A stretch of DNA of 12,544 nt from a virus, in the UHGV virus genome UHGV-0329897, one strand, 5' to 3'. The position numbers were made by a program, and so were the translations under genes. Of the stretch, positions 381-11,960 are shown in pieces (within the stretch, counting starts at the first letter, position 1; every line of letters begins with the position of its first letter). The notes below the pieces were generated by a model. That model did no database searches. It saw only the letters and a list, made by a program, of their open reading frames with translations, and was not told the DNA's origin.

Positions 381-513
381 TTTTTGGGACTCCTGGCTGA
401 TTAAGTATGTCGATAAGGCGTTTCCATCCGTCACGTAATTTACGGGTGATTCGTTCAAGTAAAGATTCGGAAGGGCAGCCAGCAACAGGCCACCCTGCAA
501 TGGCATATTGCAT
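349..513 (-). CDS. cIII: CIII (protects CII from FtsH), 54 aa
   Basis: Hand translation from the ATG at 513 (minus): [54 protein letters not shown], stop at 349-351. Absent from the ORF track because it is under 60 aa. Confidence 0.85.
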   Translation of the reverse strand: MQYAIAGWPVAGCPSESLLERITRKLRDGWKRLIDILNQPGVPKNGSNTYGYPD

Positions 514-585
514 GGTGTGCTCCTTATTTATACATAACGAAAAACGCCTCGAGTGAAGCGTTATTGGTATGCGGTAACGCCGCGC

Positions 586-1531: not shown

Positions 1532-2086
1532 TTGATGAGTATAGAAATGGATCCACTCGTTATTCTCGGACGAGTGTTCAGTAATGAACCTCTGGAGAGA
1601 ACCATGTATATGATCGTTATCTGGGTTGGACTTCTGCTTTTAAGCCCAGATAACTGGCCTGAATATGTTAATGAGAGAATCGGTATTCCTCATGTGTGGC
1701 ATGTTTTCGTCTTTGCTCTTGCATTTTCGCTAGCAATTAATGTGCATCGATTATCAGCTATTGCCAGCGCCAGATATAAGCGATTTAAGCTAAGAAAACG
1801 CATTAAGATGCAAAACGATAAAGTGCGATCGGTAATTCAAAACCTTACAGAAGAGCAATCTATGGTTTTGTGCGCAGCCCTTAATGAAGGCAGGAAGTAT
1901 GTGGTTACATCAAAACAATTCCCATACATTAGTGAGTTGATTGAGCTTGGTGTGTTGAACAAAACTTTTTCCCGATGGAACGGGAAGCATATATTATTCC
2001 CTATTGAGGATATTTACTGGACTGAATTAGTTGCCAGCTATGATCCATATAATATTGAGATAAAGCCAAGGCCAATATCTAAGTAA
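1532..2086 (+). CDS. sieB: SieB superinfection exclusion protein (184 aa)
   Basis: 184-aa plus-strand ORF converging on N (stops at 2084-2086 and 2087-2089), the lambda arrangement. Hydrophobic N-terminal region (MIVIWVGLLLL..., VFVFALAFSLAI) as expected for SieB. Confidence 0.8.
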   Translation: MMSIEMDPLVILGRVFSNEPLERTMYMIVIWVGLLLLSPDNWPEYVNERIGIPHVWHVFVFALAFSLAINVHRLSAIASARYKRFKLRKRIKMQNDKVRSVIQNLTEEQSMVLCAALNEGRKYVVTSKQFPYISELIELGVLNKTFSRWNGKHILFPIEDIYWTELVASYDPYNIEIKPRPISK

Positions 2087-2584: not shown

Positions 2585-2654
2585 CGAGCTAAGTATCACC
2601 GCTAGTGGTATTTGTGTCAACACCGCTAGAGATATTTTATCACCGCAAATGGTT
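2585..2654 (-). promoter_or_regulatory. pL promoter with operators oL1 (2594-2610), oL2 (2618-2634), oL3 (2638-2654)
   Basis: Three 17-bp lambda-type operator sites (tatcaccgctagtggta, caacaccgctagagata, tatcaccgcaaatggtt). On the minus strand the -35 TTGACA (2615-2620) and -10 GATACT (2592-2597) direct transcription towards N. Confidence 0.8.
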
Positions 2655-2809: not shown

Positions 2810-2839
2810 GCAAAGAAAACCCGGCGCTGAGGCCGGGTT
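2810..2839 (-). terminator. Intrinsic terminator closing the cI-adjacent cargo operon (tIMM-like position)
   Basis: Perfect 8-bp stem aacccggc/gccgggtt (2818-2839) with a 6-nt loop, starting 3 nt after the stop of the 250-aa ORF and followed on the minus strand by TTTCTTTG. Confidence 0.6.
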
Positions 2840-2842
2840 GTA

Positions 2843-3595
2843 TTATGCTGCAAGTCTCTTAATCCAAGTCTCTCTTTTGGAGAATGGTAGAACTTGGCTT
2901 GATTCATGGAAGAGTAAGGAGAGTTGTTGCATTTGATCACCAATTGCTTCGCTGTCTATAACAACAAATCTGTTGTTATACTCCTCACTTGAAGCTTTAA
3001 GATCAATTAGTTTCCCAAGCAATGAGTAAGCACTATTCCAGCTTCCTCCGTGTTTCACGCTTGATGTAAAAACGTATTTAGGTATGTCGGTTTTTATTGT
3101 TACAGGGACGGTAATTTGATGTCCACTCAAGCCATATACGTTTTCACGAAGAGAAAGTGCCTCTCTAAGCTCTGTGTGATATAGATAATCAATAACCATA
3201 CTTTCAAACTTTTCAGCTTGAACTGGCTGATACCAGTCTAACGACAAAGTTGATGCGAGTATACCAGCTCTAATTATGTTCGATGTAATCGCACCGACAT
3301 CCTTTTCTGTTGCCCAAGCAATGATTTCTCCTCGAGCATTGAGTTCTGCGCCTTCTTTAAGCAGTAATTGTCGTATCTCATCAAGTCGTTTTTTGGTAAG
3401 CGAGATCCCTCTTGCCTCCATATTCATTAAGGCATCGCATCTGTCACTAACTAAATACCTACCATTGACTTCACGGATAAAGGCACCGACATGCTCTCCA
3501 TCATCACAGTAAGTGAATGGACTGATAATTCTCAAGGTCTTGCCTATTGGATGGCATTCGAAACCTAGTTGTGAGATCACTGTTGAGCACATCAT
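2843..3595 (-). CDS. Hypothetical protein (250 aa), distal gene of the cI-adjacent cargo operon; no family recognised
   Basis: Long minus-strand ORF starting ATG ATG at 3595/3592; its start overlaps the upstream gene's stop (ATGA). Immediately followed by a terminator. No obvious transmembrane segment or catalytic motif that I can name. Confidence 0.7.
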   Translation of the reverse strand: MMCSTVISQLGFECHPIGKTLRIISPFTYCDDGEHVGAFIREVNGRYLVSDRCDALMNMEARGISLTKKRLDEIRQLLLKEGAELNARGEIIAWATEKDVGAITSNIIRAGILASTLSLDWYQPVQAEKFESMVIDYLYHTELREALSLRENVYGLSGHQITVPVTIKTDIPKYVFTSSVKHGGSWNSAYSLLGKLIDLKASSEEYNNRFVVIDSEAIGDQMQQLSLLFHESSQVLPFSKRETWIKRLAA

Positions 3596-4149
3596 ATTCC
3601 AAACCCCATTTGCCCCGACTCATCTTCAAGCGGTAAAGGTATTCTCCCAGAGTAAGTTATGTTCAGATGTTTACAGAAGTAATTCCAATACCCTACCAGG
3701 TCATCTGGGTTTATGTCATCTTCGATTGGAAACGCTATTCTATCACTATAGTATCCAGCTTCTTCATAGTATACATGGTAATGAGCACCGTAAATGATAT
3801 CTTGGTACTTCGGATGATCGACCTTGTAACTATTCGTGTGTTTGTCAAAGTGATAGGTATCTACCGCGAAAACCCTCTTGTTATGATAGAAAGCAATAAT
3901 ATTTATTTTAGGGTAAGAAATCGGGTCATCAGGTTCTGAATCCTGATCTGGTTTCCATTTCAGTTCAAACTTTAGCCCTTGTATAGGTATACAATCCTCA
4001 TCCAAGGGGATGATATGAGCTTGTAGCCACATATCAGAGCGACTTGGTTTCTGTTTCCATTTAACGCCAGAAAAGTTAACTATTTTTTTACAATAAAGTA
4101 CTTTATCAACTTCTACTTGGCTTGGCTGATAATCATCTATTTTTGCCAA
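3592..4149 (-). CDS. Hypothetical acidic, aromatic-rich protein (185 aa), proximal gene of the cI-adjacent cargo operon; no family recognised
   Basis: Minus-strand ORF beginning 39 nt downstream of the cI stop. The codon at 4149-4147 is TTG (track prints M) preceded by AGGGCGG 7 nt upstream; the first in-frame ATG is codon 40. Contains acidic clusters (PDQDSEPDDP, EDDINPDD, LEDESGQ). Confidence 0.65.
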   Translation of the reverse strand: MAKIDDYQPSQVEVDKVLYCKKIVNFSGVKWKQKPSRSDMWLQAHIIPLDEDCIPIQGLKFELKWKPDQDSEPDDPISYPKINIIAFYHNKRVFAVDTYHFDKHTNSYKVDHPKYQDIIYGAHYHVYYEEAGYYSDRIAFPIEDDINPDDLVGYWNYFCKHLNITYSGRIPLPLEDESGQMGFGI

Positions 4150-4188
4150 TGTTTACCGCCCTGTAAATTGTAGATAAAAGTGGTTTCA

Positions 4189-4905
<717 letters not shown>

Positions 4906-4912
4906 TTAAATC

Positions 4913-4990
4913 TATCACCGCAAGGGATAAATATCTAACACCGTGCGTGTTGACTATTTTACCTCTAGCGGTGATAATAATTGCATGTAC
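4913..4990. promoter_or_regulatory. Right operator and divergent promoters: oR3 (4913-4929), oR2 (4936-4952), oR1 (4960-4976), pR (-35 TTGACT 4950-4955, -10 GATAAT 4973-4978), pRM on the opposite strand
   Basis: Three 17-bp operator sites (tatcaccgcaagggata, taacaccgtgcgtgttg, tacctctagcggtgata) between the cI and cro starts; strong SD AGGAGG before the cro ATG. Confidence 0.85.
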
Positions 4991-4993
4991 TAA

Positions 4994-5203
<210 letters not shown>

Positions 5204-5210
5204 ATAACAC

Positions 5211-5242
5211 CGCTCTTACACATCACAGCCCTGAAAAAGGGC
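5211..5242 (+). promoter_or_regulatory. nutR (boxA CGCTCTTACA 5211-5220; boxB GCCCTGAAAAAGGGC 5228-5242)
   Basis: Canonical boxA followed by the boxB hairpin, just downstream of cro. Confidence 0.8.
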
Positions 5243-5254
5243 ATCCAATTAAAC

Positions 5255-5286
5255 CACACCTATGGTGTATGCATTTATTTGCATAC
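5255..5286 (+). terminator. tR1 region (Rho-dependent terminator zone) with a 7-bp palindrome
   Basis: Position between nutR and cII; palindrome gtatgca/tgcatac at 5267-5286. A Rho-dependent site cannot be proven from sequence alone. Confidence 0.4.
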
Positions 5287-5299
5287 ATTCAATCAATTG

Positions 5300-5350
5300 T
5301 TATCTAAGGAAATACTTACATATGGTTCGTGCAAACAAACGCAACGAGGC
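5300..5350 (-). promoter_or_regulatory. pRE region with CII-binding direct repeat TTGC-N6-TTGC
   Basis: Minus strand reads TTGCGTTTGTTTGC (plus-strand 5331-5344) overlapping the cII start codon region, the lambda pRE -35 arrangement. Confidence 0.55.
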
Positions 5351-5615
5351 ACTACGAATCGAGAGTGCGTTGCTTAACAAAATCGCAATGCTTGGAACTG
5401 AGAAGACAGCGGAAGCTGTGGGAGTTGATAAGTCGCAGATCAGCAGGTGGAAGAGAGACTGGATTCCCAAGTTCTCAATGCTGCTTGCTGTTCTTGAATG
5501 GGGGGTCGTTGACGACGACATGGCTCGATTGGCGCGACAAGTTGCTGCGATTCTCACCAATAAAAAACGCCCGGCGGCAACCGAGCGTTCTGAACAAATT
5601 CAGATGGAGTTCTGA
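5322..5615 (+). CDS. cII: CII transcriptional activator (97 aa)
   Basis: ATG at 5322 gives MVRANKRNEALRIESALLNKIAMLGTEKTAEAVGVDKSQISRWKRDWIPKFSMLLAVLEWGVVDDDMARLARQVAAILTNKKRPAATERSEQIQMEF. The track ORF begins at an upstream alternative start. Confidence 0.95.
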   Translation: MVRANKRNEALRIESALLNKIAMLGTEKTAEAVGVDKSQISRWKRDWIPKFSMLLAVLEWGVVDDDMARLARQVAAILTNKKRPAATERSEQIQMEF

Positions 5616-5637
5616 GGTAATTACTGGATCTATCAAC
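5561..5637 (-). ncRNA. oop: oop antisense RNA (about 77 nt) with its t0 terminator
   Basis: Minus strand from 5637 reads GTTGATAGATCCAGTAATGACCTCAGAACTCCATCTGGATTTGTTCAGAACGCTCGGTTGCCGCCGGGCGTTTTTTAT, the sequence I know as lambda oop/t0: GC hairpin plus T6 tract, antisense to the cII 3' end. Confidence 0.75.
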
Positions 5638-5647
5638 AGGAGTCATT

Positions 5648-6547
5648 ATGACAAATACAGCAAAAATACTCAACTTCGGCAGAGGTAACTTTGCCGGACA
5701 GGAGCGTAATGTGGCAGATCTCGATGATGGTTACGCCAGACTATCAAATATGCTGCTTGAGGCTTATTCGGGCGCAGATCTGACCAAGCGACAGTTTAAA
5801 GTGCTGCTTGCCATTCTGCGTAAAACCTATGGGTGGAATAAACCAATGGACAGAATCACCGATTCTCAACTTAGCGAGATTACAAAGTTACCTGTCAAAC
5901 GGTGCAATGAAGCCAAGTTAGAACTCGTCAGAATGAATATTATCAAGCAGCAAGGCGGCATGTTTGGACCAAATAAAAACATCTCAGAATGGTGTATCCC
6001 TCAAAACGAGGGAAAATCCCCTAAAACGAGGGATAAAACATCCCTCAAATTGGGGGATTGCTATCCCTCAAAACAGGGGGACACAAAAGACACTATTACA
6101 AAAGAAAAAAGAAAAGATTATTCGTCCGAGAATTCTGGCGAATCCTCTGACCAGCCAGAAAACGACCTTTCTGTGGTGAAACCGGATGCTGCAATTCAGA
6201 GCGGCAGCAAGTGGGGGACAGCAGAAGACCTGACCGCCGCAGAGTGGATGTTTGACATGGTGAAGACCATCGCGCCATCAGCCAGAAAACCGAATTTTGC
6301 AGGGTGGGCTAACGATATCCGCCTGATGCGTGAACGTGACGGACGTAACCACCGCGACATGTGCGTGCTGTTCCGCTGGGCATGCCAGGACAACTTCTGG
6401 TCCGGTAACGTGCTTAGCCCGGCCAAACTCCGCGACAAGTGGACCCAGCTCGAAATCAACCGTAACAAGCAACAGGCAGTCGTGACAGCCAGCAAACCAA
6501 AACTCGACCTGACAAACACAGACTGGATTTACGGGGTGGATCTATGA
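5648..6547 (+). CDS. O: Replication initiator O (299 aa)
   Basis: Lambda-type O translation (MTNTAKILNFGRGNFAGQERNVADLDDGYARLSNMLLEAY...), with the origin iterons embedded in the coding sequence. Confidence 0.95.
   Translation: MTNTAKILNFGRGNFAGQERNVADLDDGYARLSNMLLEAYSGADLTKRQFKVLLAILRKTYGWNKPMDRITDSQLSEITKLPVKRCNEAKLELVRMNIIKQQGGMFGPNKNISEWCIPQNEGKSPKTRDKTSLKLGDCYPSKQGDTKDTITKEKRKDYSSENSGESSDQPENDLSVVKPDAAIQSGSKWGTAEDLTAAEWMFDMVKTIAPSARKPNFAGWANDIRLMRERDGRNHRDMCVLFRWACQDNFWSGNVLSPAKLRDKWTQLEINRNKQQAVVTASKPKLDLTNTDWIYGVDL
5996..6130. repeat. ori-lambda: four about 18-bp iterons (5997-6014, 6017-6033, 6041-6057, 6064-6081) followed by an AT-rich unwinding region
   Basis: Direct repeats tccctcaaaacgagggaaa / tcccctaaaacgaggga / tccctcaaattggggga / tccctcaaaacaggggga, then acaaaagaaaaaagaaaagattatt. 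Confidence 0.9.
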
Positions 6548-7245
6548 AAAACATCGCCGCACAGATGGTTAACTTTGACCGTGAGCAGATGCGCCGGATC
6601 GCCAACAACATGCCGGAACAGTACGACGAAAAGCCGCAGGTACAGCAGGTAGCGCAGATCATCAACGGTGTGTTCAGCCAGTTACTGGCAACTTTCCCGG
6701 CGAGCCTGGCTAACCGTGACCAGAACGAAGTGAACGAAATCCGTCGCCAGTGGGTTCTGGCTTTTCGGGAAAACGGGATCACCACGATGGAACAGGTTAA
6801 CGCAGGAATGCGCGTAGCCCGTCGGCAGAATCGACCATTTCTGCCATCACCCGGGCAGTTTGTTGCATGGTGCCTGGAAGAAGCATCCGTTATCGCCGGA
6901 CTGCCAAACGTCAGCGAGCTGGTTGATATGGTTTACGAGTATTGCCGGAAGCGAGGCCTGTATCCGGATGCGGAGTCTTATCCGTGGAAATCAAACGCGC
7001 ACTACTGGCTGGTTACCAACCTGTATCAGAACATGCGGGCCAATGCGCTTACTGATGCGGAATTACGGCGCAAGGCTGCCGATGAACTGACCTGTATGAC
7101 AGCGCGAATTAACCGTGGTGAGGCGATCCCTGAACCAGTAAAACAACTTCCTGTCATGGGCGGTAGACCTCTAAATCGTGCACAGGCTCTGGCGAAGATC
7201 GCAGAACTCAAAGCTAAGTTCGGACTGAAAGGAGCAAGTGTATGA
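6544..7245 (+). CDS. P: Replication protein P (DnaB helicase loader), 233 aa
   Basis: Lambda-type P translation (MKNIAAQMVNFDREQMRRIANNMPEQYDEKPQVQQVAQIINGVF...). Start overlaps the O stop (ATGA). Confidence 0.95.
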   Translation: MKNIAAQMVNFDREQMRRIANNMPEQYDEKPQVQQVAQIINGVFSQLLATFPASLANRDQNEVNEIRRQWVLAFRENGITTMEQVNAGMRVARRQNRPFLPSPGQFVAWCLEEASVIAGLPNVSELVDMVYEYCRKRGLYPDAESYPWKSNAHYWLVTNLYQNMRANALTDAELRRKAADELTCMTARINRGEAIPEPVKQLPVMGGRPLNRAQALAKIAELKAKFGLKGASV

Positions 7246-7605: not shown

Positions 7606-8046
7606 ATGAAAAAACTAACCTTTGAAATTCGATCTCCAGCACATCAGCAGAACGCCATTCAAGCTATCCAGCAAATCCTTCCAGACCCAACCAAACCAAT
7701 CGTAGTAACCATTCAGGAACGCAACCGCAGCTTAGACCAGAATCGAAAGCTTTGGGCTTGCCTTGGTGACGTCTCTCGTCAGGTTGAATGGCATGGTCGC
7801 TGGCTGGATGCAGAAAGCTGGAAGTGCGTTTTTACAGCAGCATTAAAGCAGCAGGACGTTGTTCCTAACCTTGCCGGGAATGGCTTTGTGGTAATAGGCC
7901 AGTCAACCAGCAGGATGCGTGTAAGCGAATTTGCGGAGCTATTAGAGCTTATACAGGCATTCGGTACAGAGCGTGGCGTTAAGTGGTCAGACGAAGCGCG
8001 ACTAGCTCTCGAATGGAAAGCGCGATGGGGAGATCGGGCTGCATGA
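7606..8046 (+). CDS. ninB: NinB (Orf-family recombination mediator), 146 aa
   Basis: ATG at 7606 with SD GAGGGAAG gives MKKLTFEIRSPAHQQNAIQAIQQILPDPTKPIVVTIQERNRSLDQNRKLWACLGD... The track start at 7588 is a TTG. Confidence 0.9.
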   Translation: MKKLTFEIRSPAHQQNAIQAIQQILPDPTKPIVVTIQERNRSLDQNRKLWACLGDVSRQVEWHGRWLDAESWKCVFTAALKQQDVVPNLAGNGFVVIGQSTSRMRVSEFAELLELIQAFGTERGVKWSDEARLALEWKARWGDRAA

Positions 8047-8570
8047 CTATCAAATCAAATACGCCAGCACACGACAAGGACTGCTGGCAAACGCCGCTTT
8101 GGCTTTTTGATGCACTGGATATTGAGTTTGGATTCTGGCTGGATTCGGCAGCGAGCGACAAAAATGCTCTGTGCGCTCACTGGTTAACTGAGGCCGACGA
8201 CGCGCTAAATTCTGAGTGGATAAGCCACGGTGCAATCTGGAATAACCCACCGTACAGCAATATCAGGCCGTGGGTGGAAAAAGCCGCTGAGCAGTGCATA
8301 CAACAGCGACAGACGGTAGTGATGCTTGTGCCAGAGGATATGTCTGTCGGATGGTTCAGCAAGGCTCTGGAGAGTATTGACGAAGTTCGCATCATCACTG
8401 ATGGACGGATTAATTTTATCGAACCATCGACAGGGCTGGAGAAGAAGGGAAACAGCAAAGGTTCCATGCTGCTGATTTGGCGACCGTTCATCAGTCCTCG
8501 ACGGATGTTTACTACCGTATCCAAAGCGGCATTGATGGCGATCGGGCAGGGCGTCAGGAGGGCTGCATGA
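8043..8570 (+). CDS. Phage orphan DNA N6-adenine methyltransferase (phage T1 Dam-like family), 175 aa
   Basis: ATG at 8043 overlaps the ninB stop (ATGA). Contains the N-terminal DxxCWQTP motif and the NPPY catalytic motif (WNNPPYSN), occupying the slot where lambda has ninC. No adjacent restriction endonuclease gene. Confidence 0.8.
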
Positions 8571-10450: not shown

Positions 10451-11533
10451 TTAGAACTGGTAAACCATACCTACAGCAACGATATCATCGGTAGCAACGC
10501 CAGATGCTTTCGTGAAATCGCTCTTATCAATCAGGTTGATTTTGTAATCAACAAAAGTGGACATATTTTTGTTGAAGTAATAGGTTGCACCTACATCAAT
10601 ATATTCAACCAGGTCCTGATCACCCCACGCACCCAAGTCTTTTCCTTTAGATTGCAGGTAAGCAACGGACGGACGCAGACCGAAGTCGAACTGATATTGT
10701 GCAACTACTTCGAAGTTTTGTGCTTTGTTGGCAATATGGTTATTACCAAAAACAGTCATGTTCTGGGTTTCAGAATAGGTGGTAGCCAGATAGATGTTGT
10801 TCGCATCATATTTCAGACCAGCTGCCCATACTTCAGCATTTTGACCAGATGCATTCAGGCTGTTGTTACCGTAGATAACCTGATTATTAGTGCGGTCAGA
10901 TTTAGCATAGGTTGCACCTACACCGAATCCTTCATACTCATAAGTAGTGGAGAAACCGAAACCATCACCATTAGCTTCAGTTACGTCAGTGCGGTCATTT
11001 TTACCCTGATACTGAGCAGCAAAGTTCAGACCATCAACCAGACCAAAGAAGTCGTTGTTACGATAAGTTGCAACACCAGTGGTGCGACCAGTCATGAACA
11101 CATCTGTTTGGGTCCAGGTATCGCCACCGAATTCTGGCAGAACGTCAGTCCACGCACCGATGTCGTATGCTACACCGTAGTTACGGCCGTAATCGATTGA
11201 GCCGTAGTCACCGAATTTCAGGCCTGCAAATGCAAGACGGGTTTTGTCTTTGGAGGAACCTTGAGATTCAGCGCGGTTGCCTTTGAATTCATATTCCCAC
11301 TGACCGAAACCAGTCAGTTGATCGTTGATTTGGGTTTCACCTTTGAAGCCAAGACGGGCATAAGTAGTATCACCATCATCTGCATCATTAGAGGAGAAGT
11401 AGTGCTTAGCATTAACTTTCCCGTACAGATCCAGCTTGTTACTGTCTTTATTATAAATTTCAGCTGCCTGAGCAGACATCGCCATCAGTACTGATGCAGC
11501 TACAGCAGAAATTGCCACTGTTAATTTTTTCAT
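10451..11533 (-). CDS. nmpC: Outer-membrane general porin, NmpC/OmpD-type (360-aa precursor)
   Basis: ATG at 11533 with SD AAGGG; signal peptide [23 protein letters not shown] then AEIYNKD...; C-terminal beta-barrel signature ending ...VAVGMVYQF. Uninterrupted reading frame. The track start at 11593 is an upstream alternative start. Confidence 0.9.
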
Positions 11534-11960
11534 CGTGAGCCCTTTTTTTGAACTATTATTAAAAAATGATGTCACTGCGCGATAAATATTCATCTAATCA
11601 ATGTGATTATTTCAAGATGTAAGTTTTGGTTTCTCATTTGATTTGTGAAGTAGATCTCTATTTTTATCTGAACTTTTTCTATCGAATCCTATTCATGGCT
11701 CTTGGCTGAATAAAAATAAATCTATTAGCCAATTTATATTAATGGCTGTTATTTATAAGTGCTCTATAATTTGAAGGTTCAATTTAAATCGGCTAAAAAT
11801 AACGCTGGAAATTATTTGTTGGTTATTTGTTGAGATTTTCTTATGTATTTGTAGTGGTGTTTTCAATACTCGGTAGCATTCTCGCAAATATCATTTAGTG
11901 GTTTACGTACGTAAAAAATTGGTTATGCTGTTAAGAGTGGTTACTTCGTCACACAGCTTA

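Follow-up and report, generated by a model that had tools for sequence, protein, structure and literature searches.

The interval between the phage genes cI and N is a known mosaic hotspot, occupied by rexAB in lambda and by the abortive-infection gene bstA in prophage BTP1 (Owen et al., PMC8585504). The bstA gene lies directly downstream of the prophage repressor, in a synteny conserved across hosts, and BstA is expressed in lysogeny. Two-gene arrangements are also on record as defense systems or candidates; PADLOC-DB 2.0 (2023) lists PDC-M24 as a candidate on computational grounds only, and DS-6/HipAD, whose kinase is essential for defense, has been validated (DeWeirdt, Mahoney and Laub, Science 2026, PMC13092281). 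Here, we analyzed a 12,544-nt stretch of UHGV virus genome UHGV-0329897 (the window), comprising the immunity and early region of a lambda-like prophage, in which two overlapping genes, termed A and B, take the place of rexAB. An earlier reading of this DNA, referred to as the original prediction, had proposed a lysogen-expressed defense cassette at this position. We regard A-B as a credible and, on balance, probable lysogen-expressed anti-phage module, a function predicted from genomic context and protein comparison.

Alignment to lambda delimited the cassette to the nucleotide. From the cI stop through P, window positions 4188-6700 match lambda (locus L010, 3130-5642) without gaps at 97.8% DNA identity. 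On the other side, positions 2498-2839, from nutL/oL up to the rexB stop, are 88% identical, and this block includes the terminator, which lambda has in common at the end of rexB (tIMM position). No DNA homology to lambda was detected in the alignment over 2840-4187. Because the limits of lambda homology coincide with the cI stop and with the rexB stop and terminator, these 1,348 bp exactly replace rexB-rexA between conserved flanks, as expected from the proposed location in the rexA-rexB slot between cI and oL. Between cI and N, further phages that have these flanks contain rexAB, a gene with an NYN domain or other unnamed genes. A-B and RexA-RexB share the slot after the cI stop, the strand, the terminator before oL and the number of genes, and expression in lysogens together with the repressor is presumed for A-B. 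They differ in their domains, which are unrelated, and in that A-B is soluble, unlike the multi-pass membrane protein RexB. Neither protein has sequence similarity to RexA or RexB, and searches of PADLOC, Pfam and NCBIfam gave no Rex match. Kyte-Doolittle hydropathy averaged over 19 residues peaks at 0.45 in A and 1.19 in B (the SieB-like protein of the window reaches 1.73) and indicates no membrane helix, consistent with the earlier statement that both proteins are unlike the Rex pair and lack such helices.

The gene order described in the original prediction was reproduced. After cI and a 39-nt gap follows the TTG-initiated gene A, the stop of which overlaps the ATG of gene B as ATGA. The hairpin located 3 nt past the B stop comprises eight perfect pairs (six of them G-C) and a 6-nt loop, followed by the T-rich TTCTTTGCCT. 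Also in agreement, the cassette is more AT-rich than its backbone, with 39.3% GC (window, 44.8%; cI, 45.4%; N, 50.6%). One detail had to be corrected; oL3 (2638-2653) does not directly follow the hairpin but lies ~164 nt past the terminator. It belongs to three TATCACCGC-type 16-mers with spacings of 24 and 20 nt in the block homologous to lambda oL. The right operators were placed by transferring the lambda annotation (oR3 3855-3871, oR2 3878-3894, oR1 3902-3918) at an offset of +1058. By analogy with lambda, this oR/pRM region is the presumed promoter for a cI-A-B transcript in this prophage, cI the presumed transcriptional driver of the cassette, and the three genes would be cotranscribed from pRM in lysogens. 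A terminator scan revealed no terminator-like site between cI and A on the minus strand. Promoter-like sites within the cassette did not exceed the count expected by chance, and none stood out as a promoter of its own.

To relate the cassette to other genomes, we surveyed complete Escherichia coli sequences, phages and more distant loci. It is a common element; at >99% identity, it was present in 241 of 5,426 complete E. coli genomes, in one copy per genome, including that of the reference strain ATCC 25922 (Seattle 1946). Among phages, ev207, ev017, PhiR57_1, PhiR63_2 and the Stx1a-converting phage Stx1_121427 carry it, and protein relatives were found in Salmonella, Yersinia, Klebsiella, Photorhabdus, Aeromonas and Thorsellia. 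Across 90 related loci, with identities down to 36% (A) and 47% (B), both genes were always intact, adjacent and overlapping, by ATGA in 69 loci and by 13 nt in 21. The ratio of nonsynonymous to synonymous substitution rates (dN/dS), determined for pairs with unsaturated dS, was 0.04-0.15 for A and 0.014-0.04 for B, indicating purifying selection. Since the pair is intact and overlapping in 90/90 loci and under purifying selection, A and B are real genes and not a chance pair of open reading frames (ORFs); the earlier view of the ORFs as genuine genes thus held when the integrity of their homologs was checked. In the prophage of ATCC 25922, the early-left region is broken by two frameshifted ISEc52 copies (locus L011, 1783-2952 and 6418-7587). 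This prophage may be defective, with its cI-A-B region intact.

A prophage repressor is the upstream neighbor of A-B in nearly all 90 loci. The 39 distinct upstream proteins share a mean column identity of only 21%, with a helix-turn-helix (HTH) domain of the HTH_3 family in 36 and Peptidase_S24 in 33, and short Rac-type repressors are also among these neighbors. The only clear non-repressor in this set is a DUF3024 protein encoded directly upstream of A in an IMG/VR contig (L051, 383-724). The 99%-identical cassette was found behind at least three different cI alleles, and Aeromonas, Thorsellia, a Klebsiella Rac-like prophage and a Pseudomonas phage show the same arrangement. In the Pseudomonas phage, VB_PaD_phPA-G, a B relative with 29.5% identity follows a CI-like repressor. 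A 670-bp 'empty' gap downstream of this repressor contains an A-like ORF that is absent from the GenBank annotation (PP083311.1, ~14515-15033; L095, 2986-3504), begins with MAKQK, ends with GQMGFDV and shares 4 nt with the B-like gene. A-like ORFs also lie upstream of B relatives (~22-24% identity) in two metagenome contigs. A third homolog search, based on an alignment of distant relatives, largely recovered the close relatives already found and added two short metagenome contigs, and searching a plasmid collection with a distant B relative gave no match. A second allele was observed in IMG/VR contigs (L086-L090, cassette at 3462-4768), directly after a lambda-type cI and with the 13-nt overlap. 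Its B and A proteins are ~51% and ~40% identical to those of the window, respectively; at least two alleles, deeply diverged from each other, thus exist within one immunity type.

Although the original prediction could place neither protein in a family, B was readily classified. Residues 26-110 match Pfam DUF1828 with 33.5 bits (cutoff 22), as do all 25 family members, and the whole protein matches PADLOC PDC-M24B (E 5.8e-10, residues 2-248 on profile positions 4-253 of 256). HHpred data reported for an identical B assign DUF1828 to residues 25-114 (99.5%) and DUF1829, of clan PDDEXK, to residues 155-241 (98.8%; PMC13092281). A profile search of 1.84 billion representatives yielded 232 clusters, nearly all of proteins with ~250 amino acids (aa) and with end-to-end matches. 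Among 66 aligned distant relatives, 50 match PDC-M24B, with E values down to 8.8e-55. The AlphaFold model of B (predicted local distance difference test (pLDDT) score 86) has two domains. The N-terminal one (~1-120) adopts a fold resembling type III secretion chaperones and YbjN, and the C-terminal one (~125-250) adopts a PD-(D/E)xK fold with the alpha-beta-beta-beta-alpha-beta core present.

The 66-sequence alignment showed which residues of B are conserved. These comprise D32, G33, D51 (66/66), G63, G89 and F130 in the N-terminal domain and linker, and G155, S157, G158, H159 (50/66), P164, W186, Y190, G194, K195, K/R200 and R209 in the C-terminal domain. Position 198 is acidic in all 66 sequences and E/D214 is kept in 59. 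The canonical strand-2 Asp and strand-3 (D/E)xK motif are absent from the family; position 159 is His in 50/66, and strand 3 (173-178) contains no conserved acid or Lys. In the model, the closest nuclease folds are restriction enzymes, for example, NgoMIV and Cfr10I. In this group of enzymes, the helix that follows strand 3 contributes an acidic residue. D198, E/D214, K195, K/R200 and R209 of B could, judging from their conservation, form a noncanonical site. Since the canonical PD-(D/E)xK motif is lacking, the DUF1829 domain would be either a noncanonical nuclease or a DNA-binding derivative.

Protein A proved more difficult to classify. Its TTG start is secure because an in-frame TAA lies two codons upstream and residues 1-39, preceding the first in-frame ATG (codon 40), are conserved; GTG or TTG serves as the start codon in 32 of 33 distinct upstream contexts. 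Family matches remained sub-threshold or partial. Pfam DUF6978 gave 22 bits (cutoff 29.6) over the C-terminal third only, with 16 of 18 relatives similarly below threshold, and PADLOC PDC-M24A matched weakly (E 4.8e-4, residues 104-163 only), with no match at E 0.01 for six other A-like proteins; the DUF6978 and PDC-M24A matches both fall on residues 104-164. The AlphaFold model (pLDDT 82, predicted template modeling score 0.80) is beta-rich with two helices. A structure search found no match among solved folds, and the single match in BFVD was an uncharacterized siphovirus protein. The profile and structure searches suggested in the original prediction have therefore placed B in families and left A with sub-threshold matches and no solved fold. 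Profile searches of A and B against PDB sequences gave no significant match, NCBIfam returned nothing for either protein, and no toxin, antitoxin, HTH or ribbon-helix-helix domain was found in either using Pfam, PADLOC and NCBIfam. A is diverging faster than B. Fourteen A-like sequences, down to 19% identity, all keep R92, D97, H104, N106, H123, H125, F158, P173 and Q180, and an HxH(x3-4)E pattern is also retained. The C-terminal tail (173-185) is conserved but modeled with low confidence. Of the earlier description of A as strongly acidic and Tyr-rich, the Tyr content stood (16/185). A nucleic-acid mimic or strongly acidic sensor was rejected, as A is no more than mildly acidic, with an isoelectric point (pI) of 5.27 and a net charge of ~-9.

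Both proteins already figure in prediction resources. The pair is, by sequence comparison, a divergent, repressor-linked branch of the candidate family PDC-M24. No paper in the literature library searched names PDC-M24, and it was not among the PADLOC candidates tested in a cold-seep study. Literature queries with DUF1828, DUF6978, PDC-M24, the WP accessions and the phage names recovered nothing on function. DefensePredictor assigned log-odds of 5.64 to an identical B (WP_000968518.1) and 4.90 to an identical A (WP_001062368.1; PMC13092281). A single operon of an ECOR genome is the source of both accessions, which appear only in Tables S5 and S10, under the label 'Predicted novel defense gene'; they are absent from Tables S6-S8 and thus lie outside the 94 cloned units and the validated systems DS-1 to DS-45. 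The defense inference is hence shared by two independent predictors, PADLOC PDC-M24 and DefensePredictor, while the implied novelty did not survive, with the family in a 2023 database and the exact proteins in a published supplement. Table S6 of the same study includes two units resembling cargo of this slot. CITO/DS-34, a phage CI repressor plus one downstream gene, was validated, and NYND, an NYN-domain gene like that of phage ev099 in this slot, was tested and not validated. These outcomes bear on how often cargo of the cI-proximal slot scores as defense.

Comparison to described systems placed the pair between several of them. With PDC-M24, it shares the order of two genes, the protein sizes and a full-length match of B to PDC-M24B, but it forms a divergent branch in which A matches PDC-M24A only weakly. 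DS-6/HipAD offers an architectural parallel, as in both cases an enzyme gene, putative for A, comes first and is followed by a gene for an N-terminal partner domain and a C-terminal DUF1829 (155-241 in B). The first protein of DS-6, however, is a HipA-like kinase and A an unclassified His-cluster protein, the N-terminal domain of the second is DUF3037 in DS-6 and DUF1828 in B, and DS-6 is validated whereas the A-B pair is a prediction. BstA resembles the pair in genomic position and differs in being a single protein with a DNA-based self-immunity element; it is not homologous to A-B, and a search for repeats or a comparable element inside the cassette gave only short, probably chance matches. 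Restriction endonucleases of the NgoMIV, Cfr10I, PspGI and EcoRII types and the Can2 nuclease domain share 6-12% sequence identity with B, which lacks their strand-2 Asp and strand-3 Lys and has neither a methyltransferase partner nor a CARF domain. Fold relatives of the N-terminal domain of B are type III secretion chaperones and YbjN-like proteins (SicP, CesT, AmyR, DUF2170). Unlike these, the B domain has no secretion system nearby, is fused to a nuclease-fold domain and carries the family-conserved D32 and D51.

We favor a defense function because of the position in the rexAB slot, the repressor linkage, the two predictors and the purifying selection. In the corresponding model, cI, A and B would be read as one transcript from the repressor promoter that ends at the shared terminator, as in lambda. 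A would be made at a low level from its conserved weak GTG/TTG start and B by translational coupling through the overlap. The chaperone-like DUF1828 domain of B might then hold A in a complex, perhaps through the conserved flexible C-terminal tail of A. A would be a toxic, enzyme-like effector, with the invariant R-D-HxN-HxH cluster as its putative active or metal-binding site. On infection, the nuclease-fold DUF1829 domain of B would bind DNA or a phage cue and release or activate A, resulting in abortive infection or attack on phage nucleic acid. Such an outcome would be analogous to that of RexAB, although the two proteins are soluble and not related to that system. This division of labor, with A as a low-abundance effector restrained by B and B as the sensor, is a tentative and weakly held preference based on the conserved weak start of A, its invariant catalytic-type residues, the missing canonical motif in B and the parallel to the DS-6 architecture.

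Several observations weigh against this model. PD-(D/E)xK domains usually act as effectors in defense systems. B retains a well-conserved polar set (S157, H159, K195, D198, K/R200, R209 and E/D214), and the proximity of its fold to restriction enzymes such as NgoMIV and Cfr10I points in the same direction. The fold of A gave no functional lead, its match to PDC-M24A (E 5e-4) spans just 60 residues and is missing in other A-like proteins, and its faster evolution fits a sensor better than an effector. For the defense function as such, units in the DefensePredictor score range of 3.6-7.6 were validated in 10 of 26 tests (PMC13092281). The roles could accordingly be reversed, with B as a noncanonical PD-(D/E)xK nuclease effector kept inactive by its chaperone-like N-terminal domain and A as a sensor or activator recognizing a phage component. 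The published HHpred assignment of B to DUF1829 in clan PDDEXK (98.8%), the conserved charged residues (198 acidic in 66/66, E/D214 in 59/66, K195, K/R200 and R209), the use of PD-(D/E)xK domains by 13 validated DefensePredictor systems (PMC13092281) and the rapid divergence of A, as often seen in sensors, are consistent with this arrangement. We regard it as the leading alternative but nonetheless consider it unlikely, as B lacks the canonical strand-2 D and strand-3 (D/E)xK, with His at 159 and no conserved acid or Lys in strand 3, and a sensor role leaves the invariant catalytic-type cluster and the conserved weak start of A unexplained.

Two further explanations dispense with a primary anti-phage role. 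The pair might serve a lysogeny-tied function of the phage itself, such as modulating induction or establishment, processing DNA in the lysis-lysogeny decision or countering host defenses. It is almost always repressor-linked across unrelated immunity types, in every readable context it is accompanied by the repressor position and not by a defense island, and, in lambda, transcription from pRE at establishment covers this region as well. However, the repressors differ in type, from S24-cleavable cI types to short Rac-type HTH proteins, so that A-B is unlikely to be connected biochemically with the repressor in a direct way, and the linkage is accounted for equally well by shared expression. 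The cassette is missing from many lambdoid phages with this immunity, which contain different cargo, and it is hence dispensable for lysogeny; together with the flagging by two defense predictors, this renders a lysogeny function improbable. Even less probable, in our estimation, is a toxin-antitoxin-like addiction module that stabilizes the prophage. An operon of two genes that overlap by 4 nt, the first with a weak start, would suit such a module, for which DS-6/HipAD, interpreted as toxin-antitoxin-like, provides a precedent. Yet neither A nor B has a recognizable antitoxin DNA-binding domain or belongs to a known toxin family, no promoter of its own rises above chance, and an integrated prophage would gain little from addiction. 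As toxin-antitoxin and abortive-infection roles often coincide, this explanation is not fully separable from the defense readings.

Features of the analyzed window, with coordinates in nucleotides from its first position.
Feature	Coordinates	Strand	Details
cI repressor gene	4189-4902	-	ORF, 237 aa; Pfam HTH_3 and Peptidase_S24 (E 3e-29)
Spacer cI-A	4150-4188	-	39 nt, with GGGCGG Shine-Dalgarno-like stretch
Gene A	3592-4149	-	185 aa, TTG start at 4149
Gene B	2843-3595	-	250 aa, ATG start
Intrinsic terminator hairpin	2818-2839	-	AACCCGGC/GCCGGGTT; terminator scan
oL1, oL2, oL3	2594-2653		Left boundary landmark of the slot, outside the cassette
oR3-oR2-oR1 with pRM/pR	4913-4976		Constant-offset homology to lambda
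SieB-like superinfection exclusion gene	1532-2086	+	Hydrophobic segment, 39.1% GC
OmpC/NmpC-type porin gene	10451-11593	-	Inside the late-regulatory region of the prophage
Lambda_thermo (cIII thermoregulator RNA element)	468-526	-	Rfam, 88.5 bits
195-aa ORF	7983-8570	+	Overlaps the end of ninB

Beyond the cassette, the window contains further features of interest. The SieB-like gene lies within a block 99% identical to lambda ral-sieB-N and represents a second AT-rich exclusion moron adjoining the cassette. The porin gene has a homolog labeled 'porin OmpC' in the related prophage of ATCC 25922. It precedes a strongly AT-rich segment (27% GC, flank 11551-11850) and is likely lysogenic-conversion cargo. 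Lambda_thermo was the only Rfam match in the window. The ATCC 25922 homolog of the 195-aa ORF is annotated as phage N-6-adenine methyltransferase; this putative methyltransferase could matter for telling self and non-self apart if B acts on DNA.

The ground is thus partly claimed, with the candidate family in PADLOC and the exact proteins in a published prediction list. Validation would probably reveal new biochemistry instead of another copy of a known system because a protein without a solved-fold match is paired with a nuclease-fold adaptor. If A-B is a defense system, it would affect how susceptible clinical and reference strains are to phages and how lambdoid prophages compete with one another. 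A more far-reaching proposal, which we consider doubtful, is that A is the first member of a new enzyme family, having an as yet unsolved fold and an invariant R-D-HxN-HxH site, and acts as a toxic abortive-infection effector, while B is a reusable adaptor composed of a partner-binding N-terminal domain and a DUF1829 sensor, a logic in common with HipAD (DS-6). If true, 'effector X + DUF1829 adaptor' would be a general design of repressor-linked prophage immunity with a new biochemical activity.

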